A stretch of DNA of 64,000 bases from a virus (IMGVR_UViG_3300046737_000169:9765-73764); one strand, 5' to 3'; positions 30,666 to 47,880 are shown, counted from the stretch's first letter. Program-made: numbers and translations. Notes: generated by a model from the letters alone, not told the origin.

Positions 30666-31477
30666 AGCTTGATCGCGTCGCACGCCGGGTTGGCAAGGTC
30701 CACGGTGCTTTTGAGGTAGCGGTCCGTGACCGCAATGGAGGAGTGCCCCAAGGTCAACTGGATCTGCACAAGATCCGCTTTCCCTTTTAAGGCGAGCCGG
30801 GCGAACGTCCTGCGCAAATCGTGCGGCGCTAACTGGGGCACTCCGATCCGTTGGCCCGCCGCCTTTACGATCGCGTGAATGTGGTCTGCCGTCAACCCTT
30901 CCGCGCTCGCCTTCTCCTTCCAGACCCGCCGGAGCACCGGCCCGGTGGAGACCTGAGCCGCCTGCAGCCACTCATGAAGCGCCAGGATGGCCCAGGAGGG
31001 CAGCGGGACCGTCCGGACCCTGCGCCCCTTCCCTACCAGGTCGAGGAGCACCGTGCGGCCGTCGAGCGTCTGTACGTGGGCAACCTGGAGGCTGGCGAGT
31101 TCAGACCGCCGGAGCGCGGCGCCGGTCAGGAGGGCTAACAGGCAACGGTCACGCGCCCCGGCCAGTCCCGGCCCCGGCTCGAGAAGATTGCCCAACTGTC
31201 CGAGCGAGAGCCATGTGCCCATCTTCACACCCCGGACGGGGAGCGAGCGGATCGCCTCGATCGCCATCATCTCGGCGGCGGGCGCGTTCTGCCGCGCCAG
31301 GTGCTTGAGCGCGGCCAGGTGCAGGTTCACCGTCGCGGGCGCGTATCCGCCGTCGCGCCGCTCGGCCACGTAGGTCTGGATGCCGGCGGCGGTAAGCTCT
31401 CGATCGTAGTTGCGCCAGATGGCGGCGTATGCCTCGCGCGATCGCTTCGCGTTGAGGGTTTCAAGACTCGTGTTCAT
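30662..31477 (-). CDS. tyrosine recombinase (Xer/integrase family, no arm-binding domain)
   Basis: Catalytic R (ALRRSEL), K (GKGRR), HDLR, LGH, Y (TDRY). Confidence 0.92.
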   Translation of the reverse strand: MNTSLETLNAKRSREAYAAIWRNYDRELTAAGIQTYVAERRDGGYAPATVNLHLAALKHLARQNAPAAEMMAIEAIRSLPVRGVKMGTWLSLGQLGNLLEPGPGLAGARDRCLLALLTGAALRRSELASLQVAHVQTLDGRTVLLDLVGKGRRVRTVPLPSWAILALHEWLQAAQVSTGPVLRRVWKEKASAEGLTADHIHAIVKAAGQRIGVPQLAPHDLRRTFARLALKGKADLVQIQLTLGHSSIAVTDRYLKSTVDLANPACDAIKL

Positions 31478-33225: not shown

Positions 33226-33921
33226 ATGAAGAAGATGTTTCTCGCGTCCGCGCTGGCACTGGCCTGCTCGGCGAATCTGGGAGCCACTCTGCTCAGCACG
33301 CTCGTTGCTGGCGGTTCGCTTTCCAATGCCAACATCACCATCGATAACTTCGCGTTCACGCGCACTTGCAGCGGCGTCGGCGTATGCGCGCCCTTGGACG
33401 CCAGCGGTATTGACGTAACGCTGGTAGGCAATCAGATCCGCTTCGCCGGCGGCTTCACCGCCCTTAGCAATGGCGGCTTCGCTACCGCAGATTTCCTCAT
33501 CGCCTACGATCTTCAGTCCACTCTCGCCATTGGCGGCGTGGGTCTGCTGTTTAACGGCGCCGTAGTGGGAGATCAGTCCGCCGCCCAAGTGGTCGAGACC
33601 GTGCTGGCGACCGTGCCCTTCCTGCACGTCGCCGGTCAAGCCCAGGTCAACGCGCCCGGCGGCCCGCTCGCTGATGTGGCTATCCTCGACGCCGCCTACC
33701 AGGATCTGCGGATCGTCAAGGACATCTTCCTCGTGGGCTCCGATACCGAGGGCCTCGGCTACGCGACGATCTCGCTGATCGATCAGTTCTACGCCGGACC
33801 CGGCGTTGACCCGTTCTGCGTCGATGGGACGTGCGACGATGTGCCGGAGCCGGGCACCTACGGCCTGATGGGCTCGGCCCTGATGGGCATCTACCTGATC
33901 CGCCGCCGTAGGGTAAGCTAG
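33226..33921 (+). CDS. PEP-CTERM sorting domain surface protein
   Basis: N-terminal signal peptide; C-terminal VPEPGTYGLMGSALMGIYLIRRRR. Confidence 0.92.
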   Translation: MKKMFLASALALACSANLGATLLSTLVAGGSLSNANITIDNFAFTRTCSGVGVCAPLDASGIDVTLVGNQIRFAGGFTALSNGGFATADFLIAYDLQSTLAIGGVGLLFNGAVVGDQSAAQVVETVLATVPFLHVAGQAQVNAPGGPLADVAILDAAYQDLRIVKDIFLVGSDTEGLGYATISLIDQFYAGPGVDPFCVDGTCDDVPEPGTYGLMGSALMGIYLIRRRRVS

Positions 33922-34026: not shown

Positions 34027-34821
34027 ATGCTCAAAATTTCTGTCCTCGCGACATCGAGCGCCGGCAACGCTACGTTCGTCAGCGATGGAACCACCCGCCT
34101 GTTAGTCGATGCCGGACTCTCGCTCTACGACACCGCCGAGAGGCTCGCCGCGATCGGCGAAGACATCGACCGGATCAACGCCGTGCTCCTGACGCATCCG
34201 CATTCGGACCATGCGTTCGGCCTCACTACGCTCATCAAGCGCTGGCGCCGCGGCGGCGCCTTCGTGCCGGTGTACTGCTCGGCCTCCACATTCGAGGCGC
34301 TCGGCCAGATGATTCCGCCGCACTGGTATCGGCACGTTGCCCAGCACGACGAGTGGAAGGTTGGAGAATTGCACTGCGAGACGTTCGCCGTCGAGCACGA
34401 CACCGGCGAGCCGCTCGGCTTCACCGTCGCCGATACCGGGGGCAGGCGCGCCACGTTCGCGCTCGACCTGGGCAAGATCGACGGCTACCTGGGCGAGTAC
34501 CTCGCCTGTGCGGAAGTGCTGTTCCTCGAGTCCAATCACGATCCGGAGATGCTCGCGGCCGGACCGTACCAGTACAAGCTGAAGCAGCGCATCGCGCAAA
34601 CGCACTTGTCGAATGCAGCCGCCTGTAAATGGATCGAGGAGCACATGACCTCGCGTACGGGTCACTTGCTCCTCGGTCACTTATCGAAAACCACCAACGA
34701 TCCGGAACTGGTGCGCCTGATGGCCATGCGGGCGCTCAACGAGCGCGGCCTGGATTCGGGCGTCGTCGAAGTGATTGCGCCGGGAGAGCCGCCTTCAGGG
34801 CCGCTCGTCATCGACGACTAG
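34027..34821 (+). CDS. MBL-fold metallo-hydrolase (YycJ/WalJ-like)
   Basis: S.S.GN, LLVDAG, THPHSDH, HD, DLG, ESNHD, HLSN, GHLS. Confidence 0.88.
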   Translation: MLKISVLATSSAGNATFVSDGTTRLLVDAGLSLYDTAERLAAIGEDIDRINAVLLTHPHSDHAFGLTTLIKRWRRGGAFVPVYCSASTFEALGQMIPPHWYRHVAQHDEWKVGELHCETFAVEHDTGEPLGFTVADTGGRRATFALDLGKIDGYLGEYLACAEVLFLESNHDPEMLAAGPYQYKLKQRIAQTHLSNAAACKWIEEHMTSRTGHLLLGHLSKTTNDPELVRLMAMRALNERGLDSGVVEVIAPGEPPSGPLVIDD

Positions 34822-35072
34822 CACTCGCAGTTCTGCCAGGAGCGCCCGCACTCCGAGCAAAGGCCGGTGCGCGGGTGTCCAGCCGCCTGAGCGTAGGTGT
34901 CGGTCCAGGGCTCGGTCGTCGCCTCGACGGTCTGGCGCAGAACCAGGTCGTCGTCCGCCGGCTCAGCCGCCTGAGGTTCAGCCGCCTGAGTCAGCCGCCT
35001 CTTCTTCTCGGCGTTGGCCGCCTGCATCCGCGCCAGGGCCTCGCGTTGCGCGGGCGTCATCGGTATTGCCAT
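34818..35072 (-). CDS. hypothetical protein with C-terminal Cys cluster
   Basis: GAGGAG RBS; CSECG..CEC. Confidence 0.55.
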   Translation of the reverse strand: MAIPMTPAQREALARMQAANAEKKRRLTQAAEPQAAEPADDDLVLRQTVEATTEPWTDTYAQAAGHPRTGLCSECGRSWQNCEC

Positions 35073-35085
35073 AGCTTTATTCTCC

Positions 35086-35364
35086 TCACGACTTCGGCCT
35101 CTTGGGGCAGTTGGCCCAGTGCCCGCGCAGGGTCGTCCCGCTGATGATGGCTCCGCAGCCCCACCAGCACTTGACCGACACGCCCTTGGGCCTCCCCAGG
35201 TTCCGGGGATCGCCCTTCTTGCGCCCCGGCTTCTTCTTCGGCGGTCCAGCCGCCCGTGCGGCGCTCACCGAGTTCGGGCACTCGGTGTGGTGCGCCTGAT
35301 CGAGCCGCTCGAAAATGAACAGCCCGCAATTGCACTCAACCTGTTGTTGTTCCACTCCCTTCAC
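35086..35364 (-). CDS. small Zn-finger/AT-hook-like basic protein
   Basis: CNCG..H..CP; PGRKK..GRPK; CWWGCG..H..CP. Confidence 0.6.
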   Translation of the reverse strand: MKGVEQQQVECNCGLFIFERLDQAHHTECPNSVSAARAAGPPKKKPGRKKGDPRNLGRPKGVSVKCWWGCGAIISGTTLRGHWANCPKRPKS

Positions 35365-35420
35365 CTCTCATTGGGGAAATATCCCAGGAGGAGCGCTCGC
35401 AAGCGCCCTCCCTGCGATGC

Positions 35421-35591
35421 TTACCGCATGTTGGCGATCATCTGGTTCACCTTGCCTTGCCGCTTGTCCGGCGGCAGCGCGTCCATGATGTGCTGCGCCA
35501 GCATGAGCACCGCATGGGCCTCCTGCTTCGACATCTCGACCGTGATCTTGTCTGTGGTCTTCTTCAACTGGTCCTCGTTTCCCGCGTCCAT
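35421..35591 (-). CDS. small hypothetical protein (start uncertain)
   Basis: ITVEMSKQEAHAVLML..; codon bias. Confidence 0.45.
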   Translation of the reverse strand: MDAGNEDQLKKTTDKITVEMSKQEAHAVLMLAQHIMDALPPDKRQGKVNQMIANMR

Positions 35592-35652
35592 CCGGCGATG
35601 GATTCGCGCCTGGAGCCGCCCGTCAGGACGGCCCCTCGGTGCGAGCCCTCCG

Positions 35653-36438
35653 CTACCGCGAGAACGGCTCGACAAAGATCGCGTACTCGCGCCCCTTGCC
35701 AATGCCCTCGATGGTCACCGTCTCGCACGCGCCGTCCATGCCGAACGCTTCCCAGAGTTGCCGGGTCCGCTCGTCGCTCCGGCCTACGGTGAACAGTAAG
35801 CTCGGCTCAGGCGCGGGCTCGACCTTGAAGTACATGCCATCGGCGAACCACTCGGCGAGGTGGGCGTGGACGTGGAACGAGGCGCTGCCGATCTGCATCG
35901 TGGAGTACAGCGACACCGGCGCGCCCCCGGTGTCCTGGACCGGCACGCCGTCGCGGTACTCGTCATCGCCGATAGCCTCCTCGTTGACCTTCCACTCGAA
36001 GTCGCTCGCCCTTGAAATGCGCACCACGTCGTCCTCGTTGTACTCGCCAGCACGCGCACCCGGCTGCGGAATCGGCGAACAGTCCTCACGGTCGCACTCG
36101 GACACCTCGCCCGCCCAGTCGCAGTGAGTGCAGTACGCGGGCGAGTCCGGCCCCCACTCGCGCGTGTCGTCCTCGACCTCGGTTTCGACATGGTCGATCC
36201 CGTGATCGACGATGCGCGCCTCGATGTTCTGCGTCACATACAGCTTGTCGGACTTCGCGCACCTGGGGCAGCAGAAACGCGGAGTGTAGATCCCTGCGGC
36301 GTCCTTGATTCCGAGCGCCATGCCCGCCCGTTTAGCCGCCAGCCAATCGTTGTAGCTCATCTGCGTGACGTTGTGCGCCACGTCCGCCTGCCAGTCTTCC
36401 ACCGGCCACAGAATTTCAGTCGCCTGTTTTACGTCCAT
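35653..36438 (-). CDS. hypothetical acidic protein with Zn ribbon
   Basis: GAGGTGAAG RBS; CPRC..CTHC. Confidence 0.7.
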   Translation of the reverse strand: MDVKQATEILWPVEDWQADVAHNVTQMSYNDWLAAKRAGMALGIKDAAGIYTPRFCCPRCAKSDKLYVTQNIEARIVDHGIDHVETEVEDDTREWGPDSPAYCTHCDWAGEVSECDREDCSPIPQPGARAGEYNEDDVVRISRASDFEWKVNEEAIGDDEYRDGVPVQDTGGAPVSLYSTMQIGSASFHVHAHLAEWFADGMYFKVEPAPEPSLLFTVGRSDERTRQLWEAFGMDGACETVTIEGIGKGREYAIFVEPFSR

Positions 36439-36601
36439 CACTTCACCTCTTCTTCTTTCTCTTCGCCCAAAAATAGAAACAGCCAGCACTCGGTCCCTTC
36501 CACCTCCAGCGTCTCGCCGCTGAGGAGGATCACGCCGTCGTCGCCTACCCGCTCCTTGACCTTCGCCACAAACCGCCGCAACTCTTTGACCGTGACCGCC
36601 A

Positions 36602-36901
36602 TCACTTCACCTCAACCTTTCTTCGGTTCTCTAATACGTGCGCGATGGCCTGCTCGACCAACGCATCGCCCAGGCGCGCAAAGCGCCGGTCAGCCGCCTG
36701 TCGGGCGCGCTTCTCATACTCTTCGCGTGACCACGGGAGGAACACGGCCCGCCCGCCCAGGCCCTTGGCCTCGATGCGGCACTCTTCGCGCGTCATCAGG
36801 TAGCTGAGCCCCGGAGCCTTGAAAGTGTCGCGCCACCGGCCCGTGACCGGATCTCGGCGCGAGCCCTGTAGCTTGTACTCAAACACCGGCTTCTTCTTCA
36901 T
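36602..36901 (-). CDS. hypothetical protein
   Basis: Overlap-coupled; ends in EVK, which carries the RBS of the next gene. Confidence 0.6.
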   Translation of the reverse strand: MKKKPVFEYKLQGSRRDPVTGRWRDTFKAPGLSYLMTREECRIEAKGLGGRAVFLPWSREEYEKRARQAADRRFARLGDALVEQAIAHVLENRRKVEVK

Positions 36902-37443
36902 CGCTTCCCCTCCATCGGACACGCCTCGTCATGCTCTTCGCCGTACCAGGAGCGGTCGTCGCAGTCGCACACCGGGTCGTAGTCGCTCCAGTGGTTGTCC
37001 AGGTGATCGGCCAGATCCTTCGCGCCAGCCGCCCGTAGCGCGGCGAGGATAGCCGCGTGCTGCTCGCTATCGACCAGCAACTGCCGCACGCCCGTAGGTT
37101 CGTCGTCGCCCTCCTCTTCGTCGTTGGCCTTGTCCGCGCAACCGGGGCAAAGCTCGCGGTCCTCAGAGTCCCATCCCCAGTCGCCTGAGTCGGACGGGTT
37201 CACGTCCACGCGCTTGCACTCTTCGCACACGCGGATGCCCGCCTCGTCGTTGCCGATCCAGACCCACGCCTGTACGTAGGCCCCGATATCGTCCTCGCCG
37301 TCGCGCGACACCGGCGCTTCGTCGTCCACCTCCAGCGTGCCTTCGTCGTAGTGAACGCGGATGGCCGCTGCCCGGTAGGCGTTGTCCAGGAGTTCTTTGT
37401 TGTCCTCGTTCATCGGGCTCGCATCACGAACCTTCTTTGCCAT
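36898..37443 (-). CDS. hypothetical highly acidic protein
   Basis: GAGGTG RBS; GAYVQAWVW motif; CxxC pairs. Confidence 0.65.
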   Translation of the reverse strand: MAKKVRDASPMNEDNKELLDNAYRAAAIRVHYDEGTLEVDDEAPVSRDGEDDIGAYVQAWVWIGNDEAGIRVCEECKRVDVNPSDSGDWGWDSEDRELCPGCADKANDEEEGDDEPTGVRQLLVDSEQHAAILAALRAAGAKDLADHLDNHWSDYDPVCDCDDRSWYGEEHDEACPMEGKR

Positions 37444-37637
37444 CACCTCACCTCCCTGGCGCGGGCGCGCTTGCGCTCGCGCATCCAGATATCGTCGTCG
37501 CGCCGGTCGTTGTCGCCAACAAGCCAGCCCATCATCCACATGCTCTGCTCGATCTTGGAGAGCGTAGCGGGCGCTTCGCAGGGAAGTCCCCGCAGGCCCG
37601 CCGCGCGCCCGTCATCGGAGACGTTAGGCTTTGCCAT
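37443..37637 (-). CDS. small hypothetical protein
   Basis: Overlap-coupled; GRAAGLRG.PC..W..GW. Confidence 0.5.
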   Translation of the reverse strand: MAKPNVSDDGRAAGLRGLPCEAPATLSKIEQSMWMMGWLVGDNDRRDDDIWMRERKRARAREVR

Positions 37638-38124
37638 CGCCCTTCACCTCCATGTCAAGCTCCAGCCGCTCGCACAGGTCTTCGAGCGAAATGCCTTCGC
37701 AGATGTCGTCGTTTTCGAGTTCGACAACATCGCCGTCTTCGCCGAAAGCATCCTGCAACTCCTGCTCTAGTTCGTGCAGCGCATCCCAGTAGTGCGACTG
37801 CGCCGCCTGCGCCCGTTCGAGTGAATCGCGCACCTCGCGGTGTGGGTCCGGCTCCGGCTCTTCTTCTGCCGCTGGCCCCTGGTCTGAGAACACCTCGAAG
37901 CGCCCGCGCCAGTCTTCCATGAACTCGCCCAGGTTGTCGTAGATATCCGCCTCGCCGGGTTCGTCGCCCACCTGGACCTGCATACTCGCGCCGCTGTTCT
38001 CGCGCAGGTAGACCGGCAACCGGCGCGGCTCTGACTTGAGCTTGCCGTGCGCGGCGATGTCCGGGGGCAATGCCCCGGCATCGACTATGCCGATTTGAAA
38101 CGTCACTTTCTTCGCCGCCATCAC
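37624..38124 (-). CDS. hypothetical acidic protein
   Basis: GAGGTGAAG RBS; D/E-rich. Confidence 0.65.
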   Translation of the reverse strand: MMAAKKVTFQIGIVDAGALPPDIAAHGKLKSEPRRLPVYLRENSGASMQVQVGDEPGEADIYDNLGEFMEDWRGRFEVFSDQGPAAEEEPEPDPHREVRDSLERAQAAQSHYWDALHELEQELQDAFGEDGDVVELENDDICEGISLEDLCERLELDMEVKGDGKA

Positions 38125-38414
38125 TTCACCTCCTCGAAGCGGATGCGGAACTTCCGCCCGTCCTTCGTTGTGATCTCTTGGCCGTCCTCGAACTCCAGAG
38201 AGTTGATGAACATGAGCGTCCCCGGATGGTCAGGGTCTTCCTCGTCCCCCGGATACTCCAGTCCGTTCACCTCGGCCTCGCGCTCGGCCAGCCGCCGCGC
38301 CGCCCCAAATTCGTCGTCGTCCGGCTCGGCCTCCATGAGTGCGCCACTCAAGCAGTCCTCATCGGCTCCGTACTCGCGCCACTGCAAAATCGTCAATACC
38401 ATTACCGCTTTCAC
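38121..38414 (-). CDS. hypothetical acidic protein
   Basis: Follows a repeat element; D/E-rich. Confidence 0.6.
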   Translation of the reverse strand: MKAVMVLTILQWREYGADEDCLSGALMEAEPDDDEFGAARRLAEREAEVNGLEYPGDEEDPDHPGTLMFINSLEFEDGQEITTKDGRKFRIRFEEVK

Positions 38415-38474
38415 CTCGGGAAGTGTCCCAGGAGTGGCAGCCGCCCGTGCTGCTGCCCTCCCTGCGATGCTTTC

Positions 38475-39047
38475 CTAGACCGTCACCGGCACAAACTTCC
38501 AGTCCTGGCCCAGCGAGTCCTTCATGTCTTCCAGGCACGCATAGTCATCGTCGTCACCGGCCCCCTCCATCGCCACGCGCACCAGACCGTCCGAGAGCCG
38601 GTAGACCTTGAACGCAGTTCCCTCGCCGCTCTCAATCGAGCCCAGGTGCTCACCCGGATACGGCTGCGGCTCGTCGAACACAAGCACCGGCGGGTCTTCC
38701 CACGGCCCCTCGGAATCCCAGTAGTCAACCACCTTGTCAACCTCGGACATGAGCGGCTCAAGCGCCATGTGGTAGTCGTTGATTACGTCGTAGCCGGAGT
38801 TGCCGTAAATCAGGACCACTTCGCCCAGGAGCGCCAGCCGCCCGTCCGCGTCGCGCGTGGCATCCACATACAGGTGGTCGTCGTCGGTCGTCATGAGCGC
38901 GCGCATGATCTCGTTCGCCTTGCGTGATTGCCACAAGACAATCTCTTCGCCGTTGTGGACGCTGATGTTGTGGCCCCTGGCGAGCGCAGTCTGCACAAAC
39001 GTGCCGATCACATGCCGCTCGATAAACTGCCTGATTCTCACTGTCAC
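38475..39047 (-). CDS. hypothetical protein
   Basis: GTG start after GAGGTGAAG; VVLIYGNSGYDVINDY. Confidence 0.65.
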   Translation of the reverse strand: MTVRIRQFIERHVIGTFVQTALARGHNISVHNGEEIVLWQSRKANEIMRALMTTDDDHLYVDATRDADGRLALLGEVVLIYGNSGYDVINDYHMALEPLMSEVDKVVDYWDSEGPWEDPPVLVFDEPQPYPGEHLGSIESGEGTAFKVYRLSDGLVRVAMEGAGDDDDYACLEDMKDSLGQDWKFVPVTV

Positions 39048-39424
39048 TTCTTCACCTCTTCTTTCGCTTCCTGATTCAGCTTCGCTTCGAGCGCCAACTC
39101 GGCCTGGACTACCCGCCTGTACTCGCGCGTGGGCTCCCAGATGCCGCAGAGGCACTGGAGCAGGTTGTCTCCGGCTGAGTCCCACAGTTCGCAGTAGTAG
39201 GCTTTATCCTCCGGCTGAATGATGCCGCTGGGCCGGTCCAGGTGCGCGTCCTTGTCTATGTCCCACTCGAAATACCAGTCCTGATCGAGCGCGAACCGCT
39301 CAGCCGCCGCGAGCTTCTCAGCGGTGCGCACTTTGCCTTGCTCGGGCGTCTCGCGCGTGTCGTCCCAGGAGTAGCCCGCGTTGTCATAGAAGAACGCCGC
39401 CGCGCCCTTCAGAATCGTTGCCAT
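39044..39424 (-). CDS. conserved phage hypothetical protein
   Basis: FFYDNAGYSW..YRRVVQAELALE; GAGGTGAA RBS. Confidence 0.7.
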   Translation of the reverse strand: MATILKGAAAFFYDNAGYSWDDTRETPEQGKVRTAEKLAAAERFALDQDWYFEWDIDKDAHLDRPSGIIQPEDKAYYCELWDSAGDNLLQCLCGIWEPTREYRRVVQAELALEAKLNQEAKEEVKK

Positions 39425-39460
39425 CTTTCACCTCGCTGCGGGGAATGCCCGCTTACTAGA

Positions 39461-39489
39461 TTGTGCCAGGATCAATAGTCGCGTGCAAC
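39461..39489 (-). promoter_or_regulatory. sigma70-type early promoter
   Basis: Minus strand TTGCAC-17 bp-CACAAT; contains TTGATCCTGGCA, shared with the 45404-45415 region. Confidence 0.6.
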
Positions 39490-39643
39490 TATTTTCCTGG
39501 GATATTCGGAAAGAATTAGCCGCCTGTCAGCCGCCTGTCAAAGTTCAGCCGCCCGTGCCGGCAGCCGCCTGTCGCCGCGGGCTGCCGGCGCGAGCGCCGC
39601 GCCCTGGCGCGGGACCGGCGCGGGACCGGCGCGCCCTGGCGCG

Positions 39644-39820
39644 CTACCCGATGCGCGCCTCGATGGTCGAGAGCAGCAAGTCCGCCTGGATCTGCTGCGT
39701 CCAGAACGCCTGGGCAATGCGCGGCGTTTCCCAGGCCGTCTCGGCGCTCTTCTGGTAGATGTCTATCGCCACGCGCAGCGCGCCCTGAACGACGCGCAAT
39801 TGTTCTTCGGTCAAGTTCAT
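39644..39820 (-). CDS. small hypothetical protein
   Basis: GAGGTGAACCG ATG; MNLTEEQLRVV. Confidence 0.6.
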   Translation of the reverse strand: MNLTEEQLRVVQGALRVAIDIYQKSAETAWETPRIAQAFWTQQIQADLLLSTIEARIG

Positions 39821-39882
39821 CGGTTCACCTCGGGGAAAGTATCCCAGGAGGGGCACTCACCTGAGTGCCATCCCTGCGATGC

Positions 39883-40614
39883 TTATGCCGCCGCCTGCGC
39901 GCCCGCGATCTGGATGAGCGCCGCCTGCACCCGCTTCCGGCCCGCGCCGTGTGCGGCGAAGCCGATCACGATGCGCTCTTCGCGCAGCCGCGCGTCGTCC
40001 CAGCACAACCGGCAGCGGATGCACTGCGTGCCGTGGGTATCGTGCGGGCAGGGCAGCACGGTGAATCCAGCCGCATGTTTCCATGCCTTCGCGCCCGCGT
40101 GCGCGGCCACGACGAGCGCCGCCGCCCAACCTTGGGAGAGTGCCTGCGTCACGTCCGCCGCCGTCTCACACGACGCCAGAACCGACACCGCGCCCCAGGA
40201 GGCGCGCTTGACCTTGCGCCATGCGTGGGTGTAGGTCCAGGCCCGCCGCCGGTCGCGCCGCATGAAACGCTCAGCCGCCCGTGCGACGATGCGCGCCGCG
40301 CCGTTGGTCCGGCAGTCGCCCACGATATGGAGCCGCAAGTCATGCAGGCCCGACAACCGGTCAATCTCGCGCGCCTCTTGCCGCGCGATCAGGAGCGGGT
40401 CAACCTGGGCGCGCCGCCCGCCCGCCGCCGCGTTCAGCTTCGCCGTCTGCATCCCGACGCGGTCCTCTTCGCCGTAGCAGCCGCCGCCGTCAAAGAACGC
40501 GCAGCCTGGGTCACATGACGGCTGAGCCGCGCTCGTATTCGAGCACGGCCCTGTTTTCGAGTTCCCGCTAATCTCTACCGCTTTGGCGAGCGGCTCGCGT
40601 AACGTGGGATTCAC
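39883..40614 (-). CDS. DUF7227/Gp88-like Cys-rich (radical-SAM-like) protein
   Basis: NSKTG..SC..C..CY; LRLHIVGD; AWTYTH; CP..C..C.LC; IGF.AHG. Confidence 0.7.
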   Translation of the reverse strand: MNPTLREPLAKAVEISGNSKTGPCSNTSAAQPSCDPGCAFFDGGGCYGEEDRVGMQTAKLNAAAGGRRAQVDPLLIARQEAREIDRLSGLHDLRLHIVGDCRTNGAARIVARAAERFMRRDRRRAWTYTHAWRKVKRASWGAVSVLASCETAADVTQALSQGWAAALVVAAHAGAKAWKHAAGFTVLPCPHDTHGTQCIRCRLCWDDARLREERIVIGFAAHGAGRKRVQAALIQIAGAQAAA

Positions 40615-40862
40615 CGCGCCGCCTCCGCTGGCCGCTTGTCCCCGGCGAACATCGGCGCGGGCGGAATCCAGCCAAGCTGGGTTAGCACGGCTTCGAGTTC
40701 TTCGCAGTCCTCGTCCGTTGAGCACAAGCCCGCCGCCCATGCCTCACGCGGTCCGCGCGACTCATGCCCGTCAGCCTGCCCGCGCGCCCACCAGCCGCCC
40801 GCCGCGCCCAGGCCCGCGACTACCGCCGCGAGCGCGGCAACCTCAGCCACGCGCCGCCTCAT
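40611..40862 (-). CDS. small membrane-anchored or secreted protein
   Basis: N-terminal hydrophobic helix; CSTDEDC. Confidence 0.55.
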   Translation of the reverse strand: MRRRVAEVAALAAVVAGLGAAGGWWARGQADGHESRGPREAWAAGLCSTDEDCEELEAVLTQLGWIPPAPMFAGDKRPAEAAR

Positions 40863-41113
40863 CGGCCCGCCCCTTCCTTCGGAAAGTCGGTGTAGGCGTC
40901 GTCAAAGGCGCGCTTGATGACCATGCGCCCGTAGAATGGCCCATCCGTCTCGTCGGGCTGGTCCGCCTGCGCCCAGTGCATCAAGTCCTGAATCAGGTCG
41001 CGCGCCGTGTCGCCGTCGATCGGGCGCGTCTCATTCAGGTGCAGGGCATACGCCGTAAGCACCGCCCGCGCGCGCGCCGCGCAGGCTTCGTTCTTCTTCG
41101 TCAATACGTACAT
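40859..41113 (-). CDS. hypothetical protein
   Basis: N..RA..L.AY..DL..DLMHW motif; RBS. Confidence 0.65.
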   Translation of the reverse strand: MYVLTKKNEACAARARAVLTAYALHLNETRPIDGDTARDLIQDLMHWAQADQPDETDGPFYGRMVIKRAFDDAYTDFPKEGAGR

Positions 41114-41189
41114 CGGTTCACCTCGAAAGAATTGGGAGAAGCCCAGGAGGGACGCGAGCCGCCACGCTCGCGCCATCCCTGCGGTGCTC

Positions 41190-41489
41190 TCAAATCGTGC
41201 AGCAGCCGCAGCAGGGCGCGTCTTCGCACCGGCCCGCCTTGTTGCGGGTAAACACCGCGCCACTGCTGAACCGGATCACCGACACTGGCGCGTAAGCATC
41301 CCGCCAGTACGGCGAGCGCTGCCCCTTCTTCGCCCGCGCCCGCCTGGGCGCGCCCGCCTCAACGAGCGCCCGCGCCTCATCGGCCCGCGCATCGGGCACG
41401 CGCCACGCTTTGAGCGCCGCATCCCAGTCGCCGCCCATAGCGCGCAACTCGGCCCGGTGCGGGTACGTGTTTCCCGTAATCATTGCCAT
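41190..41489 (-). CDS. hypothetical protein with C-terminal RCEDAPCCGCC
   Basis: GNTYPHR.EL..MGG.WD...KAW N-terminal domain. Confidence 0.7.
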   Translation of the reverse strand: MAMITGNTYPHRAELRAMGGDWDAALKAWRVPDARADEARALVEAGAPRRARAKKGQRSPYWRDAYAPVSVIRFSSGAVFTRNKAGRCEDAPCCGCCTI

Positions 41490-41492
41490 TGT

Positions 41493-41687
41493 CTAGTCCT
41501 CCTCATCAATGGGCTCATCGGCCCAGTAGTTCGCATCAGTGAAAATTTCCGGCCTGTACTGGGCGCGTTTCTTCGCCTCGCACCGGCTGCACACGTAGCC
41601 GCAGGCAATGCCGCGTGCGTCATAGAGCACGTAGCGCGTCTGGCCGGAGCCGCACCCGCACGGGCGTATCGGAGGGAGCCAACTCAT
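41493..41687 (-). CDS. small Cys-rich protein
   Basis: CGCGSG..DARGI...VC..C. Confidence 0.65.
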   Translation of the reverse strand: MSWLPPIRPCGCGSGQTRYVLYDARGIACGYVCSRCEAKKRAQYRPEIFTDANYWADEPIDEED

Positions 41688-41917
41688 GACCGGCCCCCCT
41701 TCTTTCTGGCCGCGCGTTCTTCCCGCTCGGCGCGTGCGAGCAACTTGCTGGCTAGGTCGTAAACGGCGTCATAGGGAACCGCGAGCCTGCGCCGCGTCCC
41801 CTTCAATCGCAGTTCAATATGTGATGGGTGCAACTCGACCAGGAGGGCGCGTGTGCGCCCCTGGTCCCTTTTGAGCGTCGCCGTCTCCCGGCGGACCGGC
41901 TTATCGAGGCGCGTCAT
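41684..41917 (-). CDS. small basic protein
   Basis: MTRLDKPVRRET..IELRLKGTRR. Confidence 0.6.
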   Translation of the reverse strand: MTRLDKPVRRETATLKRDQGRTRALLVELHPSHIELRLKGTRRRLAVPYDAVYDLASKLLARAEREERAARKKGGRS

Positions 41918-42080
41918 TACAGCGGCTCCGATTCGATCAGGATTACATCGTTGACCCGGAGCCCGGTCACGCGCCGCGTTTCGCCGTCCGTCTCCACGTA
42001 CACCGGGCGCGAGCCCGCGCCCTGGACCTGAGCGGTCCAGAGCAGCTTGGCTAGCTCCGCGCCTGAGAGCGTGTCGATTC

Positions 42081-42338
42081 TCACCGTACACCGTCCGGCA
42101 GTACAGTCACCTCACCGGCGAGCGTGCCGGGGTAGCGGTCGCCCGCCGCCATGCGCCCGCCTGGGGACACCGTCACCAGTCCGCGCGCAATGTCCAGCGC
42201 GTGATGTACGCTCGGGCCTGCCTCGAAACGGAACCGCTGCGAGCCGCCGCCGTACCTGGGTTCAAAAGTTTTCTCGACCGTGACGCCCCAACGGCCATCA
42301 ATCAGGTCAAGATGAACGGACACGATTTGGTTTTCCAT
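42081..42338 (-). CDS. hypothetical protein
   Basis: GAGGTGAAG RBS. Confidence 0.6.
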   Translation of the reverse strand: MENQIVSVHLDLIDGRWGVTVEKTFEPRYGGGSQRFRFEAGPSVHHALDIARGLVTVSPGGRMAAGDRYPGTLAGEVTVLPDGVR

Positions 42339-42351
42339 CGCTTCACCTCTT

Positions 42352-42531
42352 CTAGAACAACTTCGGCTGCGGGTCCGATACCGGAGCCGCGAACAAACCG
42401 CCCTGCTCGACGCGAGCGCGCCGCAGCTTGCGGCGCTTCTCTTCCGGCGTCAAGGGACAGTCAAAACCAGCCGTCAACTGCTCGCCCAGGAGGCGCGCTT
42501 GGTCGTCCGGCTGCTCTTCTATCTCGATCAC
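42352..42531 (-). CDS. 59-aa early protein with twin QxxLF motifs, paralog of a segment of the giant virion protein
   Basis: GAGGTGAA RBS then GTG; translates MIEIEEQPDDQARLLGEQLTAGFDCPLTPEEKRRKLRRARVEQGGLFAAPVSDPQPKLF. Confidence 0.85.
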   Translation of the reverse strand: MIEIEEQPDDQARLLGEQLTAGFDCPLTPEEKRRKLRRARVEQGGLFAAPVSDPQPKLF

Positions 42532-42544
42532 GATTCACCTCTCT

Positions 42545-42598
42545 TTGACTATACGCCAGTAACAACGATTTGGTTACTAAATCTTGCGAAATATTTTC
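42545..42598 (-). promoter_or_regulatory. AT-rich probable promoter
   Basis: Minus-strand TATAGT -10; GTAACCAAATCGTTGTTAC imperfect palindrome. Confidence 0.45.
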
Positions 42599-42965
42599 AG
42601 GACTCGGCTTCAACCGTGTGGCGCTCGACTTCCTCCCCCACAAACGGCTCGCGCGGGTCCGCGTGGACCGTGACCGGCCCGCCGCCGCGCCCGTCGTCGT
42701 AGGTCAGCGACACCGCGCCCAGGCACCGGCGCAGGCCCTCGGCTGCCGCCTCCTGGTCGTTGATCCGCCGCAGGACGATGTTGTACACCTCGGACTCGCC
42801 GTCCGAGAGCGTGTGCTTTTCCACCGCCAACCGGCTGAGGTAGTCCCCGGCCTCGTCTTCGATGTAGATCATTTCCAGCGGAGTGGTGCGGGCGAGCAGT
42901 TCTAGCTCGCGCGCAAGGTCCGCCGCCGTCATCACCACGGCTGTATGCGTTCTGGTCATCATCAC
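42597..42965 (-). CDS. hypothetical protein
   Basis: RBS lies within a repeat element. Confidence 0.6.
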   Translation of the reverse strand: MMMTRTHTAVVMTAADLARELELLARTTPLEMIYIEDEAGDYLSRLAVEKHTLSDGESEVYNIVLRRINDQEAAAEGLRRCLGAVSLTYDDGRGGGPVTVHADPREPFVGEEVERHTVEAES

Positions 42966-43048
42966 GTTTCACCTCGAAAAGAATTACGGGAAAGAATCCC
43001 ACCGGCGCGGGCGCGCCCGGTCACACGCGCCCGCCCTCTGCGACTCTC

Positions 43049-43354
43049 TTACCGCTCGCCCGCCAGACACTTGCGCTGGCCTTCGCGCACCGACTCGACA
43101 ATGGCGCGATGGCGCGCCGTCTCCCAGTCCGCCTCATAGCCCGCCATGACCGGCGAGGCCGCCAATGGCCGCACGCTGGACAGTTCGACCCACTGGGCGC
43201 CGTCGCCCGCCACCGGCGCCACTTGCAGCCGCTGCTTACCCCAGGACGCCTTGACATCGATCACCCGGCAGTCAATCCACAGTTCACCGGCGCGCAACTG
43301 GCACAACTCGCCCACTGCGCCAATCATCCCCGTTGCCGTGTAGCGCGTCGTCAC
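43049..43354 (-). CDS. hypothetical SH3-like beta protein
   Basis: VIDVKASWG..RLQVAPVAGDG..WV. Confidence 0.6.
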   Translation of the reverse strand: MTTRYTATGMIGAVGELCQLRAGELWIDCRVIDVKASWGKQRLQVAPVAGDGAQWVELSSVRPLAASPVMAGYEADWETARHRAIVESVREGQRKCLAGER

Positions 43355-43863
43355 TAGCTCACCTCCGGCTTAATCAGATCGCCGCGCCCGTTGATGCGGA
43401 TTCCCTTGGACGCGCCCAACTCGGGCTCGACCGGGCACTGGATCGCCGCCGCGAGCCGCTCGGCCTTCCGGCGCTTGGCCACGTTCCAGCGCTTGACCAC
43501 CGGCGGGAATCCCGGCTTCTCTTTGAGCGGGGATATCTCACAGCCGAACTCGCACCCGATCCCGTTGCGCTGCCAGTCCAGGTCTTCCGGCTTAGCCTCG
43601 TACCATTTCGGCAACGTGACCGGGCGCGACATGATCCCCAGGTAGCCGTCCGACTCGAAGTAACCCATCACCACCGCCGGTCCGATGTCGTTCATCTCGA
43701 TGCGGACCATCTGCCCGACTTCGGGCAGCGGGTTCTCACCGGACCACTTCAGCGCAATCCCGCGCTCATTGTGGAACTCGCGCATGGGCGAGCCCTCATC
43801 GTCAATCAGCCGCCCCGTGGCCATTGGCCGGGGGATAAAAAACCGCTCTTTCATGCGTTCCAT
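43354..43863 (-). CDS. hypothetical protein
   Basis: WSG..PLP.VG..V...N.IG..V.GYF...GYLG. Confidence 0.65.
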   Translation of the reverse strand: MERMKERFFIPRPMATGRLIDDEGSPMREFHNERGIALKWSGENPLPEVGQMVRIEMNDIGPAVVMGYFESDGYLGIMSRPVTLPKWYEAKPEDLDWQRNGIGCEFGCEISPLKEKPGFPPVVKRWNVAKRRKAERLAAAIQCPVEPELGASKGIRINGRGDLIKPEVS

Positions 43864-43949
43864 AATCTGACCTTTCACCTCGACAAGAATTTCGGGAAGT
43901 CTCCCAGGAGTGGCGCGCGCGATCCGCGCGCCCTCCCTGCGGTACTTTC

Positions 43950-44132
43950 CTATTCGCCCGCCCGCGCCCAGAAGCGCACCGTACCCATGCGGTCCAACCA
44001 CTTGATTTGCGCCCGGTAGGACTCGCCGTCCGCCAGATACGCCGCGACGTTGAACAGGATCGACGCGCCCACCCCAGGCGCAACCGTGTCGATCCGCTGC
44101 AAGATGATCCCGTATGGGCTGAGGCGCGCCAT
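43950..44132 (-). CDS. small hypothetical protein
   Basis: TAATG coupling with the upstream gene. Confidence 0.5.
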   Translation of the reverse strand: MARLSPYGIILQRIDTVAPGVGASILFNVAAYLADGESYRAQIKWLDRMGTVRFWARAGE

Positions 44133-44746
44133 TAGAAGAGCCTCCCTTGATCGCCCGTCTCGACCGGCGCAGCCTGGGCCGCCTCGGCGAGCTTGACCGC
44201 CTCCGCGCCCGCCTTCGAGAGCACCCGCGCCAAGAACCCCTCGATCCGGGGAATCTCTTTGTTGAGGTACGCCACCTTGCGGTCGATATCGTCCTGGCAC
44301 CGCTTGACCCAGACCGCGCCGCCCTCGCCGCGCCGGTCCAAGCTGCGCTCATGGTCGCCGTTGCGCTCCACGTCGTACACCGGATGAAACAGCCAACTGG
44401 ACTCGGTGAAAATATCCTTCCCGCCCGCGTCCGCGATGAAATAGAGCCCGCTCCCGAAATACTCGCGCCCGCGCGGCATGGCCTCCACCGGCCCGGTGAG
44501 AATCTCCAGGTAGTTCCGGTATTTCACCAGCAACTTCGCATTCTTGCGGTAGAGCGTGCCGAGCGTGGGCGTCGCCTGGAGTATCCGGTCGATACAATCG
44601 AGCCCGTACTGCTGAACCAAGCCGTCCTTGTACGTCACGCGCGCCACATGCTTAATGCCCTGGCTGCACCGGTCGCAGCACTGAACCGGGGACGCCGTGT
44701 AGTAGTACACCGAGCGCACCGCCGTCGTTCCTAAAATCTGAGTCAT
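44132..44746 (-). CDS. hypothetical Zn-binding protein ending in QGRLF
   Basis: CDRC..IKH..G.DC; C-terminal QxxLF. Confidence 0.7.
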   Translation of the reverse strand: MTQILGTTAVRSVYYYTASPVQCCDRCSQGIKHVARVTYKDGLVQQYGLDCIDRILQATPTLGTLYRKNAKLLVKYRNYLEILTGPVEAMPRGREYFGSGLYFIADAGGKDIFTESSWLFHPVYDVERNGDHERSLDRRGEGGAVWVKRCQDDIDRKVAYLNKEIPRIEGFLARVLSKAGAEAVKLAEAAQAAPVETGDQGRLF

Positions 44747-44827
44747 AATTCCTTCCTCACCTCGAGTTTTCGGGAAGTCTCCCAGGAGGGAGGCGCGCCC
44801 ACTCGCCGCGCCCCATCCCTGCGGTAC

Positions 44828-45070
44828 TTACCGGATGCCCGCGAGCCGCTCGGCGATTTCGCGCTCGCGCTCGGCGAGCACTTCCTTGGCCCGCACAACC
44901 TGCTCAGCCGCTACCCATACCTGCACGCGCGGGGGAGGCAAACGCTTGTCCCTCCACTTGGGATGCTCCATCCGCGAATAGATCCCCGCTGCAATCAGCG
45001 AATCGAGCAGGCCCGCCGCCCGCATCCCCGTCGCCGTCTCGGCAATCAACGTCATCGTCGCCTGCGCCAT
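44828..45070 (-). CDS. DUF2007-like small protein
   Basis: L.AAGI..VQVWV...V.RAKEVL. Confidence 0.55.
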   Translation of the reverse strand: MAQATMTLIAETATGMRAAGLLDSLIAAGIYSRMEHPKWRDKRLPPPRVQVWVAAEQVVRAKEVLAEREREIAERLAGIR

Positions 45071-45073
45071 GAC

Positions 45074-45373
45074 CTACTTCACCTCCGCAGCCGCTGCCGC
45101 CGCCCACGCGCCGTTGCCCGCCTTCGCCTTCTTCGCCGCCGCCGCCTTCTCACACTCGGCGTCGGTAGTGCAAGCGGCGCGAGTGCACCTCTTGCACTCG
45201 CGCAACCCGTGCGCCTCCGCTACCGAACGCTCAGAAGTGAGCTTGTGAGCCTTCGCGCCCTTCCGGACACTGCACGTCGCGCTCAAGTGATACACCTTCG
45301 AGGACGGCCCGAAATGAACCGCCTCCCCGAACATCATGCTCGCCAAGAGCAACCCCAAAATTATCGACTTCAT
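45074..45373 (-). CDS. secreted protein with Ada-like metal-binding motif
   Basis: Signal peptide; KVYH...C..AEAHGLRECKRC. Confidence 0.65.
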   Translation of the reverse strand: MKSIILGLLLASMMFGEAVHFGPSSKVYHLSATCSVRKGAKAHKLTSERSVAEAHGLRECKRCTRAACTTDAECEKAAAAKKAKAGNGAWAAAAAAEVK

Positions 45374-45394: not shown

Positions 45395-45526
45395 TAGAAT
45401 TTTCTGCCAGGATCAAACGATCCTACATACGACTATACGACAATGCGAAGGTTTTGGTTACATATCACACAAAGATTTCTCAAAATAATTTTGTGGCGTT
45501 GTAACCGGCTTTATGCTCATACATAT
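45395..45526. promoter_or_regulatory. divergent AT-rich promoter region (early operon vs terS)
   Basis: AT-rich gap between divergent genes; TATGCT about 10 nt before ATG 45527. Confidence 0.6.
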
Positions 45527-46372
45527 ATGAGCGCTCAACCCGGCGCGCTGCCGCCCGCCTTGCGCCCCGGCGCGGGTCGCCTTTGCTCTATCTGCTCTCA
45601 TCCGGACCGGGACCGCATCGATGCCGCCCTCATTCAACCCGGCGTCAACCGCGCTAAATTGGCGGGAAAATTCGGGATCAATGATACTTCCCTCCAGCGA
45701 CATATGGAAAACCACTTACCTGCTAGACTGGCTCGAAATGCGGAAGTCCTTGTACGTGAGTCAGATGCGGCGATGGTCAAGTTCGCCATCGCGGAATCCG
45801 TCAACCGGATGCGGCGCATACAGAAGAGAGCGGACGCGCTCGCCCAGGTAGTAGAGGAGCGGGCCGCCGCCGGTGACGCGAGCATCCCAGGTGACCGGAC
45901 CGGCCTGCTAGTGAAGCGCCCCCGGTCCTACCGGATCGGTAAAGACGTGTTCAGGGAAGTCATCGATGTAGAGGTTGACGCCGCGCTGCTCGCAGAAGAG
46001 CGCGCCCTGGAGCGCGCCGCCGTCCTCGAAACCGGCGAGTGGCTCGCTCAGACCGGCAAAGGCCAGTGGGGCACCGGCGCAGGCGGGAACGGTCCACTCG
46101 TTGTGGTCCTGGCCTCCGGCCTGCAGCCGCTACCGGGCGAGAGCCCCGGCGAGGCGCGCCATCGTATAACGGATGCTCGCCGCAAGGTGACCCGGACCGC
46201 CGCCGAGCAGGAAACCGTGGGGCAAACCGCCGCCCTGGCCCTCACCGATATCGAGCTACCCGGCGAAGCCGGGGAGGAGGATACCCGGCAAGGTGCATTA
46301 GCGGGTACGTCCCAGGCGAGCCAGGACGCGAGCCCAGACGTAGCCTACGATGATGACGTAGACGAGACGTAG
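45527..46372 (+). CDS. putative terminase small subunit (HTH)
   Basis: CSICSHP.R..ID.AL..LAGKFGI..SLQRH..HL; helical centre; acidic tail. Confidence 0.55.
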   Translation: MSAQPGALPPALRPGAGRLCSICSHPDRDRIDAALIQPGVNRAKLAGKFGINDTSLQRHMENHLPARLARNAEVLVRESDAAMVKFAIAESVNRMRRIQKRADALAQVVEERAAAGDASIPGDRTGLLVKRPRSYRIGKDVFREVIDVEVDAALLAEERALERAAVLETGEWLAQTGKGQWGTGAGGNGPLVVVLASGLQPLPGESPGEARHRITDARRKVTRTAAEQETVGQTAALALTDIELPGEAGEEDTRQGALAGTSQASQDASPDVAYDDDVDET

Positions 46373-47600
46373 ACTCGAGACGTACCGTAGATGAAGGTGT
46401 AGGCCCGCACGCGGAGCCCGCGCGCGAGCCAACCCCTCCCCCCGCGCCCGCGAACCGGGGCCCCCCGCGCGCCTGCCCAAGGGGTGTTGTCGAGGGCATG
46501 TGAAGTACAACGTGGGAAGTGGAGCATGTCGACGGCATGTGAAGTCCAGCGTAGGAGTCCAGTGTAGGAGGGGTCTCGAGTGAAGCGGAAGATGCGGGTG
46601 AGGTGGACGTGTTCGGACTATGAGAAGCACGAGCACAGGTGGAAGTGGGTGGCGTGGGTGTGTGGGCGGATGCAGTATTTGTGGAGGGTATTTGCGGCCG
46701 GCGCACCGCCTGGCCTGAGTTAGTTCCGGATTGTGGAGGGAGTTTTTGCGGTGTGGTGGAGGGAGTTTTTGCAGAACGGCCAAATTGGCCGATATGGGGT
46801 GGGAGAGTGTACTGCTCGGATTTGGAGGGGGATCGACAACCGCGGATGATTTTTAATCAACGGGAGTTGATACGGAGCTCGGCCGTGCCGGCCTTGCGGG
46901 TAGCTCACGGGGGGAGCTATACCCCCATAAGAGTTTTGGGTGGGGCCCCGTATTTGAGGGTGGTGGAGGGGTTTTTCCGGATCCGGATCGGGTTGAACGT
47001 AGTGTACGGTTACCCCCCCCCTCCGGCCGTTTTTCGTCTGGCTCAGACGTTGGGGGCGAGGGAATCCCAATGATTTTGACCGTCCGGCGCTTGTTAGGCG
47101 GTGCCGGGCCTCACGCTTCGGGAGTTCCGCGGATCTTATTCGCGGCCGCTGGGGTGGATTCCCCAGATAGCTTCGGGGCCCTCTTTACATGCTGGGCCCG
47201 TCCCCCTGTTGAGGCTCTCACCGCCAGGGGTTTCTATGCGTGGCTTGTCGCTGTAAATCGTACAGGTGTCCGGCTTTCGCTCAGGGCCTGTCGTACTGGC
47301 AGCGCTCAGGTTAAAGCTATTGAGGTACTGGCGGCGCTCGATCAGGCGCTGGCGGGCAAGGGCGCGGTTGACGGCCTCTTTGTTGCCCTGGCAAGCGGAG
47401 AACGCGGTCAGGTAGTCGAATTTGGGGTTTTGGGTGCGGCCCCGGTAGACGAACTTGGTGCCGTCGTTGAGGGGCTTCGGAACTTTACGGGAGGACTTTT
47501 TGCTCATAGATCGAGGCCGAACGGTGACCGTCCAGCCGGGACATTTAAACGTCACAATCATGCTCCTGAAAGCGGTTGCGGTGCAAGCGATTTCTTTTTT

Positions 47601-47667: not shown

Positions 47668-47880
47668 TAAACGCACGGGTGCCCCCTATCCTGGGGGCGT
47701 TCGTGTTTCTGGGCTCATAAGAGCGGCACGCACACGCCCTCCAAGATCACTCCTTGGGGGCGTTCGTGTTTTGTGATAAGCTCCTGACTGTCTGTATTGC
47801 GGTCTTTCTGTTAGCTGGTATTGGGTAGCGCATACGCCCCGGAGTTCAAGCCATTTCTCCGGGGCGTACGTGTTTTTTGG
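47668..47880 (+). repeat. three tandem hairpins sharing a GGGGCGT(T/A)CGTGTTT 3' arm
   Basis: Copies at about 47693, 47756 and 47861, each preceded by a complementary arm. Confidence 0.7.

Follow-up and report, generated by a model that had tools for sequence, protein, structure and literature searches.

Structured RNA signals of phage early operons are known in detail for few model phages (T7, T4). The RNase III sites in the polycistronic mRNAs of T7 were reportedly described by Dunn and Studier in 1983; in size and shape, they are like an irregular helix of ~20-24 bp with internal loops. The subject here is a repeated hairpin element of ~55 bases, which lies between stop codons and ribosome-binding sites (RBSs) in the early gene array of a phage labelled G000. 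The window that was analysed is a stretch of 64,000 nucleotides, bases 9765-73764 of one 73,764-base virus record (IMGVR_UViG_3300046737_000169).

The T7 sites punctuate the polycistronic T7 mRNAs, and the hairpin remains on the 3' end of the upstream product after processing (PMC6938266). The PeSLs (promoter-early stem-loops) of T4-type phages are defined by a strong sigma-70 early promoter (-35, -10 and an AT-rich upstream sequence), which was shown to be active (PMC2839356, PMC4122927). For the SAS/ESAS of Cluster K mycobacteriophages, DNA-binding sites were favoured by the authors; the ESAS contains 17-bp inverted-repeat arms conserved in sequence, and the departures from them do not support RNA pairing (PMC3203893). 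The function of SAS/ESAS was still unknown in 2025 (PMC12699233).

Identification of the element

The element-bearing array of phage G000 contains ~30 small minus-strand (leftward) genes, running from ~45373 down to 34818, and most of them have no family assignment. A covariance model (R1) was built from 20 copies of the element and returned exactly seven sense-strand matches in the whole 73,764-base genome, with scores of 42-72 bits. All seven copies (W1 to W7) are on the minus strand inside the early array, between stop codons and RBSs, as the first-pass annotation of the window had described them. No covariance-model match was found elsewhere in G000 (the other 64 kb), and the opposite strand gave palindromic echoes only (12-24 bits). 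The loose pattern CGCAGRGNNGG..CYCCTGG had 6 matches, compared with 0.03 expected from shuffles.

The position of the copies is strict. A stop codon lies 6-10 nt ahead of every copy, the Shine-Dalgarno (SD) sequence GAGGTGA begins -1 to 12 nt after each copy, and the start codon is found 3-11 nt beyond. According to the map of open reading frames (ORFs), the remaining array junctions are overlapping or tightly spaced and coupled genes, save two promoter-like longer spacers (about 42532-42596 and 39425-43) and one 85-nt gap. A look-alike in the recombinase gene (CGCAGGG..CCCTCCTGG, 30998-31024, minus strand) is probably a chance occurrence; it is partial, lacks the 3' motif and the RBS, and has no covariance-model match.

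Structure, covariation and strand polarity

The main hairpin of the element (hairpin 1) is GC-rich and irregular, with 11-15 pairs in its helix. The upper stem comprises 8-11 bp and is variable; the basal stem beneath it has a bulge and usually reads CAGG(G)AGG/CCNCUCCUG. The length of the element's centre varies between 27 and 41 nt. In the window, the upper stems differ from copy to copy yet stay paired, and the basal stem CAGG(G)AG/CUCCUG is kept in six copies; in some relatives, it is swapped for other self-complementary sequences of the GCGG/CCGC or CCGG/CCGG types. Folding energies of the hairpins range from -24 to -38 kcal/mol, with z-scores from -1.6 to -3.7.

Covariation was analysed in a model-based alignment of 35 matches, 28 of them distinct. 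In hairpin 1, 95% of the cells are paired, 11 of the 14 pairs show double changes, and 69 cells are changed on both sides. The covariation score was 0.49 versus 0.17 for shuffled alignments (0 of 500 reached the score), while slid partners gave 0.07-0.12. Orthologous copies in a closely related phage fragment (L015) show the same pattern. W4 and its orthologue have 3 differences in 140 nt, all inside the element, and two of these are a compensatory G-C to A-U pair. W5 differs by two compensated pair changes and a loop insertion, with identical flanks; the differences in W3 are also confined to the element. The pairing of hairpin 1 is under selection, and the earlier proposal of selection on structure is borne out for this hairpin by the covariation above both controls and by the compensatory change in the orthologue. 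A hypermutable hairpin was also considered and dropped: the elements (4% of the sequence) hold 10 of the 177 differences between two 98%-identical lineages, which is no excess.

The two strands of the element are not equivalent. The sense folds contain 38 G·U pairs versus 4 in the antisense folds, and the sense hairpin is more stable in 25 of the 28 distinct copies (Wilcoxon p = 4.6e-5). Such a bias in G·U pairs and stability is not expected of duplex DNA or of the opposite strand; therefore, the form in which the element acts at stop-to-RBS junctions is a single strand with the polarity of the mRNA. The simple reading is that the acting molecule is RNA; a single-stranded DNA (ssDNA) of the sense strand is formally possible. 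Three functions had been suggested in the first-pass annotation. The RNA-level roles among them (processing/stabilising or translational) fit the sense-strand G·U asymmetry, whereas ssDNA recombination is disfavoured.

The element had been regarded as two covarying hairpins, and this is valid for hairpin 1. The small 'hairpin 2' (GGGA/UCCC) is invariant, and thus the alignment neither supports nor refutes its pairing. The flanks, which had been treated as unpaired, are the most conserved parts of the element; moreover, the 5' flank AAGCAUC and the 3' flank GGAYAYUU are mutually complementary and compete with hairpin 2. Together they could form a lower stem (P0) of five mostly conserved pairs around a 2-nt internal loop. 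Pair 1-57 changes from A-U to G-C in W4, and pair 4-54 is U-A or A-U in W1, W2, W3 and another element-bearing fragment (L017). P0 and hairpin 2 are mutually exclusive and isoenergetic on average (means of -26.7 and -26.8 kcal/mol). With the flank pairing, the helix would reach about 20-24 bp with internal loops, P0 being weak in this competition. P0 as a real feature of the element is reasonable but weakly supported.

Individual copies in the window

W1 (44771-44829, minus strand; 61.2 bits) has a minimum free energy (MFE) of -30.2 kcal/mol. It consists of the 5' flank AAGUACCG, the basal stem CAGGGAUGG/UCCCUCCUG, an upper stem of 8-9 bp and the 3' flank GGGAGACUUCCC. The stop codon of the ORF 44828-45070 is 6 nt before the helix; the SD is located at 44757-44763 and the ATG at 44746. 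W2 (43893-43947, minus strand; 67.9 bits; MFE -32.0, z = -3.7) has a G-type basal stem, CAGGGAGGG/CCACUCCUG, and a GC-only upper stem, followed by the SD at 43875-43881 and the ATG at 43863. W3 (42988-43048, minus strand; 42 bits) is degenerate, with the divergent basal stem CGCAGAGGGCGG../..CCGCGCCGGUG and a full 7-bp flank pairing (GAGAGUC/GAUUCUU); its MFE is -38.4 with z = -3.6 when the flanks are paired, and it precedes the SD at 42969-42975 and a GTG at 42965.

W4 (41132-41189, minus strand; 58.3 bits) contains a T-type basal stem and the 3' flank GGGCUUCUCCC, and its flank pair 1-57 is G-C rather than A-U; its SD occupies 41118-41124, with the ATG following at 41113. W5 (39833-39884, minus strand; 66.6 bits; MFE -25.1 and z = -3.1 with the flanks paired) has the upper stem GGCACUCA/UGAGUGCC, the SD at 39825-39831 and the ATG at 39820. 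Between W4 and W5 is the gene of a DUF7227 protein (39883-40614, minus strand), which is the sole array gene with a family match (80 bits) and is 99% conserved in the L015 lineage. W6 (38417-38472, minus strand; 71.7 bits) has the upper stem GGCAGC../..GCUGCC; its SD (38411-38417) overlaps the last base of the element, and the ATG is at 38402. The shortest copy is W7 (35373-35422, minus strand; 67.1 bits), with the upper stem GCGCU/AGCGC, the SD at 35361-35367 and a GTG at 35355.

Copies in related phages and homology breaks

The element is also present in other phage sequences. G001 (L001) is a complete 74,233-base IMG/VR phage with ~68-75% nucleotide similarity to the window, detectable only in scattered early-region segments; it carries 8-9 copies on one strand of one 8-kb early array. 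Exact-pattern scans also revealed a 73,180-base soil contig (L018, L020) that carries the element and is near-identical to G001. Three fragments (L015, L016 and L019) represent a lineage 92-97% identical to the window, and three further element-bearing fragments were found (L017, L021 and L022). The element is kept at orthologous junctions across lineages with proteins 40-55% identical.

Several other matches were rejected as chance. The pattern matches L002-L014 in viral contigs are within coding DNA, without the 3' motif or RBS. The flank-only pattern gave 87 single matches in bacterial genome contigs of unrelated phyla, scoring 20-30 bits compared with 40-75 for true copies, and a second flank-only scan of viral contigs gave two more chance matches. 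No prophage copy or host was found in the genome-contig scan with the flank-only pattern, and a search via the RepB-like neighbour gene found no related loci. Distant homologues of the gene downstream of W2 occur without the element in two unrelated phages (L112 and L113). In L112, an AT-richer phage, the homologue of the gene 43354-43863 is preceded (5860-5995) by a canonical intrinsic terminator and a TTGACA-17-TATATT promoter.

It had been suggested that synteny breakpoints in related phages might be found at the elements. In the comparison of the window with its 92-97% identical relatives, seven homology breaks were counted, and 7 of the ~31 junctions carry the element. Three breaks are at element edges: W2 is identical in L015, and the homology with L015 ends at the 5' edge of W2; the 5' edge of W6 is the exact start of the 97% identity with L016; and the homology with L019 stops just past the RBS of W7. 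The other four breaks are at element-free gene borders, and the enrichment at elements is not significant (binomial p = 0.20). Contig pieces from four soil DNA runs also end at element edges (35374, 38472 and 39884); these are not counted as independent evidence, since they probably derive from the lineages of L016 and L019. Sequencing runs that contain the region were looked up, and no RNA run was among them. A comparison of two lineages with 98% identity (G001 and Ga0247746) revealed neither indels bounded by the element nor excess divergence within it. In two cases the variable hairpin moves together with the gene downstream of it, and in a third with the gene upstream. The 278-aa gene upstream of W7 has homologues in G001, L017 and L019 that are likewise followed by a W7-like hairpin, which gives four lineages with this arrangement. 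None of these comparisons points to a fixed crossover site.

Comparison with known systems

A search of the window against Rfam 15 gave no match at gathering thresholds, and at E <=10 over 35000-45200 there were three chance-level matches, none of them at the element. The element belongs to no catalogued RNA family, in agreement with the first-pass annotation.

By position and general form, the closest functional analogue is the group of T7 RNase III sites (R0.3, R0.5, R1, R1.1, R1.3 and others). In both cases, several irregular hairpins separate early cistrons and closely precede the RBS of the following one; their upper stems are dissimilar, and bulges or internal loops break up the lower part. 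All 7 copies are between a stop codon and GAGGTGA, and are co-oriented with overlapping small genes. However, the element has no sequence similarity or Rfam relationship to the T7 sites, and its cleavage is only inferred. Sites of the T7 type would span some two helical turns (~20 bp or more) of irregular duplex, with an internal loop where the cut is made. The element's helix 1 is shorter (13-15 bp), reaching ~20-24 bp only if the weak flank pairing forms; moreover, its flanks are strongly conserved.

The PeSLs share the stop-to-ATG layout, a stable stem-loop with G·T pairs, the ORFans (genes without family matches) of a plastic region, and some mosaic boundaries. At the elements, a stable stem-loop is likewise followed by the SD and start, and the flanking genes have no family matches. 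However, no promoter of the PeSL kind is detectable at the elements and no element-mediated indels were seen; the stem of the element covaries, whereas the conserved part of the PeSL is the promoter. The Cluster K SAS/ESAS resemble the element in their number (about 10-19 copies per genome), in their restriction to the non-structural half and one orientation, and in their position immediately upstream of starts. Both systems also have a GGGA...CCC-type motif beside the SD and an upstream inverted repeat with a variable spacer. The 13-bp SAS consensus GGGATAGGAGCCC is absent here, with 23 matches at <=3 mismatches versus 26.5 expected, none of them at a start site; two matches overlap elements but are on the opposite strand. 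Unlike ESAS, the arms of the element vary with pairing preserved; the phage lineage is different, and the host probably is as well.

The attC sites of integrons and other folded ssDNA att sites are also imperfect palindromes with paired outer boxes, extrahelical bases and a variable centre, located 3' of ORFs and strand-specific. In the case of the element, there is no IntI-type integrase, no R/L box consensus and no fixed crossover point, and the coding-sense strand is the stable one. The REP/BIME, ERIC and Correia-type palindromes are similar in being transcribed imperfect palindromes just past stop codons inside operons. Such palindromes can stabilise the upstream mRNA or be cut by RNase III/RNase E; they can also stall terminating ribosomes when within about 15 nt of the stop codon. 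These bacterial repeats are near-identical copies across the chromosome in both orientations, whereas the phage element has a different centre in every copy and occurs in a single phage operon and a single orientation, each copy being tied to the next RBS.

Proposed function and alternative explanations

On this analysis, the element may well be a site between cistrons at which the RNA is processed and stabilised, in the manner of the T7 RNase III sites, and this reading is tentatively preferred here. It would fold in the long polycistronic early transcripts as a cis-acting RNA with one GC-rich irregular hairpin, and the weak lower stem P0 from the conserved flanks would alternate with the small GGGA/UCCC hairpin. 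A host or phage endoribonuclease might cut the irregular lower helix (RNase III-type) or the AU-rich 3' flank (RNase E-type). The stable hairpin would then be left as a 3' cap, shielding the upstream cistron from exonucleases; the downstream cistron would begin with a short leader bearing the GAGGUGA RBS. The array might thereby be divided into separately stable and separately translated segments. The strict stop-to-RBS position, the single strand, the restriction to the early array, the strong covariation and the stable folds are in support of such a role. Helix 1 has no T tract, unlike the phage's own terminator-like hairpins (47683-47880), which argues against simple termination.

Several points weigh against a processing site. 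Helix 1 alone (13-15 bp) is short for an E. coli-type RNase III, and P0 is weak, with 5 conserved pairs and only one or two covarying events. The conserved flanks would be superfluous for a nuclease that reads structure alone; this is a hint that a partner with sequence specificity is involved. The TGGGAYAYU sequence is also readable as a weak extended -10 promoter, and in L112 the canonical terminator and TTGACA/TATATT promoter occupy the place of W2.

These last two points lead to a PeSL-like cassette, an unlikely alternative, in which the hairpin attenuates or terminates upstream transcription, the extended -10 TGGGAYAYU restarts it, and the ~20-nt flanks act as recombination linkers that shuffle ORFan cassettes. 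The order of stop codon, stem-loop with G·T pairs and SD/start, between ORFans of a hyperplastic region, is as described by Arbiol et al. (PMC2839356, PMC4122927). TG-N-GAYAYT retains both key -10 positions (A at 2, T at 6) and resembles CCTGGCACAAT at the promoter-like site near 39460; however, it matches 3-4 of 6 positions, and a consensus scan found no promoter of the sigma-70 type at any of the elements. A conserved -35 is lacking as well. The phage's own promoter-like sites use CGTATAGTC; moreover, a transcript starting 6-8 nt past GAYAYT would begin on or inside the SD in W5, W6 and most G001 copies. The terminator and promoter of L112, upstream of the orthologous gene, are consistent with a transcriptional signal, but the hairpins in the window lack the T tract of the phage's terminator-like hairpins. 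Directly after helix 1 no U tract is present, GGGAYAYUUCCC being found there instead, and the terminator scan at the elements flagged only the small hairpin 2 of W2 and W3, with weak T-rich tails. As for the linkers, three homology breaks with close relatives are at element edges; however, the enrichment is not significant (p = 0.20), and no element-mediated indels were seen between the two 98%-identical lineages. A translational operator or bistable switch, read at the conserved flanks by an RNA-binding protein of phage or host or by a terminating ribosome, is quite doubtful. In the switch model, which is equally doubtful, a ribosome on the upstream stop codon would cover AAGCAUC and block P0, so that GGGA/UCCC folds beside the SD and couples or uncouples downstream initiation. 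Such a role would suit the high conservation of the flanks, the contact or overlap of the 5' flank with the stop codon (6-10 nt ahead of helix 1), and the exclusive, nearly isoenergetic P0 and hairpin 2 with the SD within 0-12 nt. However, the SD and the start codon are left unsequestered by both conformers; covariation is absent from hairpin 2 and very slight in P0; and the array genes, which mostly lack a family match, include no recognised RNA-binding protein.

The explanations at the DNA level are far less probable. The elements had been proposed as recombination sites for the tyrosine recombinase at 30662-31477, and it is very improbable that they are folded ssDNA sites (attC- or CTX-phage attP-like) through which this Xer-like enzyme captures or shuffles early-gene cassettes. 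An integron-like cassette system, if true, would explain the mosaic boundaries at element edges in relatives, some of which do coincide with elements; however, element-free gene borders carry equally many breaks, and the breaks occur on both sides of the element, some at the stop codon and some after the RBS, with no fixed crossover point. The form is attC-like, with conserved paired outer boxes, extrahelical bases and a central stem of variable length, but the outer boxes are CAGGGAGG/CUCCUG, and RYYYAAC/GTTRRRY boxes are missing. Both phage lineages carry the conserved recombinase; it best matches the XerC/XerD models (107 and 94 bits), whereas the integron-integrase model TIGR02249 gave 36.1 bits versus a cutoff of 265, covering the catalytic C-terminus only (residues 196-254). 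The location just 3' of ORFs, the single orientation and the strand asymmetry would also suit ssDNA sites, but the favoured strand is the coding-sense strand, and the tight tie to the stop codon and SD is simpler to explain at the RNA level. It is similarly improbable that the elements are duplex-DNA regulator sites (stoperator/ESAS-like), with a repressor at GGGA-N4-TCCC and the flanks modulating early-array transcription in the lysogen. The phage appears temperate (integrase), and the short intergenic gaps, one orientation and restriction to the non-structural genome half match the Cluster K SAS/ESAS (PMC3203893). However, pairing-preserving covariation and one-strand G·U pairs are not expected of such sites, and the variable centre (27-41 nt) would shift the flanking half-sites relative to each other. 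Hardly any weight is given to the idea of a REP/MITE-like palindromic repeat, selfish or neutral, whose spread through the intergenic gaps affected expression only incidentally, if at all. Like bacterial REP, the element is an imperfect palindrome that is present in several copies, has conserved ends and follows stop codons; however, all centres differ, unlike the product of copy-and-paste spread, and the copies are limited to a single operon and a single orientation. Neither a RAYT nor a transposase gene was seen, and the element is retained at orthologous junctions across lineages with 40-55% identical proteins.

Other candidates were dropped. N4-type hairpin promoters for a virion RNA polymerase were considered, but the 3546-aa virion protein of G000 matches no RNA polymerase family, and the loops and stems of N4 promoters are far less variable than those of the element. 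A sigma-54 promoter in CTGGGAC..TTCCC has the wrong spacing and no GC element at -12. CRISPR-repeat mimics were rejected on the ground that the stems all differ, and stop-codon read-through stimulators on the ground that no frame is conserved past the stop codon.

Genome context and other features

The G000 record has a GC content of 63% and contains no tRNA genes. No nucleotide relative was found among 50,697 deposited phages (megablast versus INPHARED), and the large terminase shares <27% identity with any deposited phage in INPHARED. The recognisable genes include the terminase, the major head protein, tail fibres, the 3546-aa virion protein, an HNH endonuclease and the 271-aa tyrosine recombinase. 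An integrase gene is present, and given this gene, phage G000 appears to be temperate. A 231-aa gene on the plus strand (33226-33921) encodes a C-terminal PEP-CTERM sorting motif (PF07589, 28 bits, residues 205-228), which hints at a Gram-negative, exosortase-bearing soil host and a surface protein of lysogenic conversion.

Of all genes in the region, the metallo-beta-lactamase-fold gene at 34027-34821 (plus strand) is the one most conserved from one phage lineage to the other, with 72% nucleotide identity. The best solved relative of its product is the anti-Pycsar phosphodiesterase Apyc1 (7u2r, E = 2.4e-5); the gene is a candidate anti-defence gene by sequence similarity. It was also considered as a processing nuclease, which was dropped on account of this nearest solved relative and the location of the gene on the opposite strand.

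Other repeats were found in the non-coding stretches. Three terminator-like hairpins at 47683-47880 (plus strand) have a common 3' tail, GGGGCGTTCGTGTT or GGGGCGTACGTGTTTTTT, and are a second repeat family, distinct from the intergenic element. A gene-free stretch at 46690-46990, read on the minus strand, contains at least four spaced repeats of the AAAAACTCCCTCCAC type; they adjoin a RepB/ParB-like gene (45443-46372) and look like iterons or partition sites. The two longest array spacers, 39425-39643 and 45400-45450 (minus strand), share TTGATCCTGGCA, which is exact at 39464-39473 and 45405-45414. CGTATAGTC is located near 45440 and 42560, and the spacer near 39.5 kb also contains the direct repeats CCGGTCCCGCG (two copies) and GACAGGCGGCT (three copies). 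The spacers with these sequences may be promoters with operator sites.

Implications

With its clear covariation and its strict place between stop codon and RBS, the element forms a new structural family, compact and well supported, in uncultivated soil phages. If it is truly a processing and stabilising site, T7-style mRNA punctuation would have arisen independently in an unrelated GC-rich lineage, and the element would provide a short, portable intercistronic insulator. If the flank pairing truly alternates with the small 3' hairpin, it would also be a simple sensor of upstream translation. In addition, the element is a test case for the question of whether conserved intergenic elements link the modular exchange of ORFan genes.

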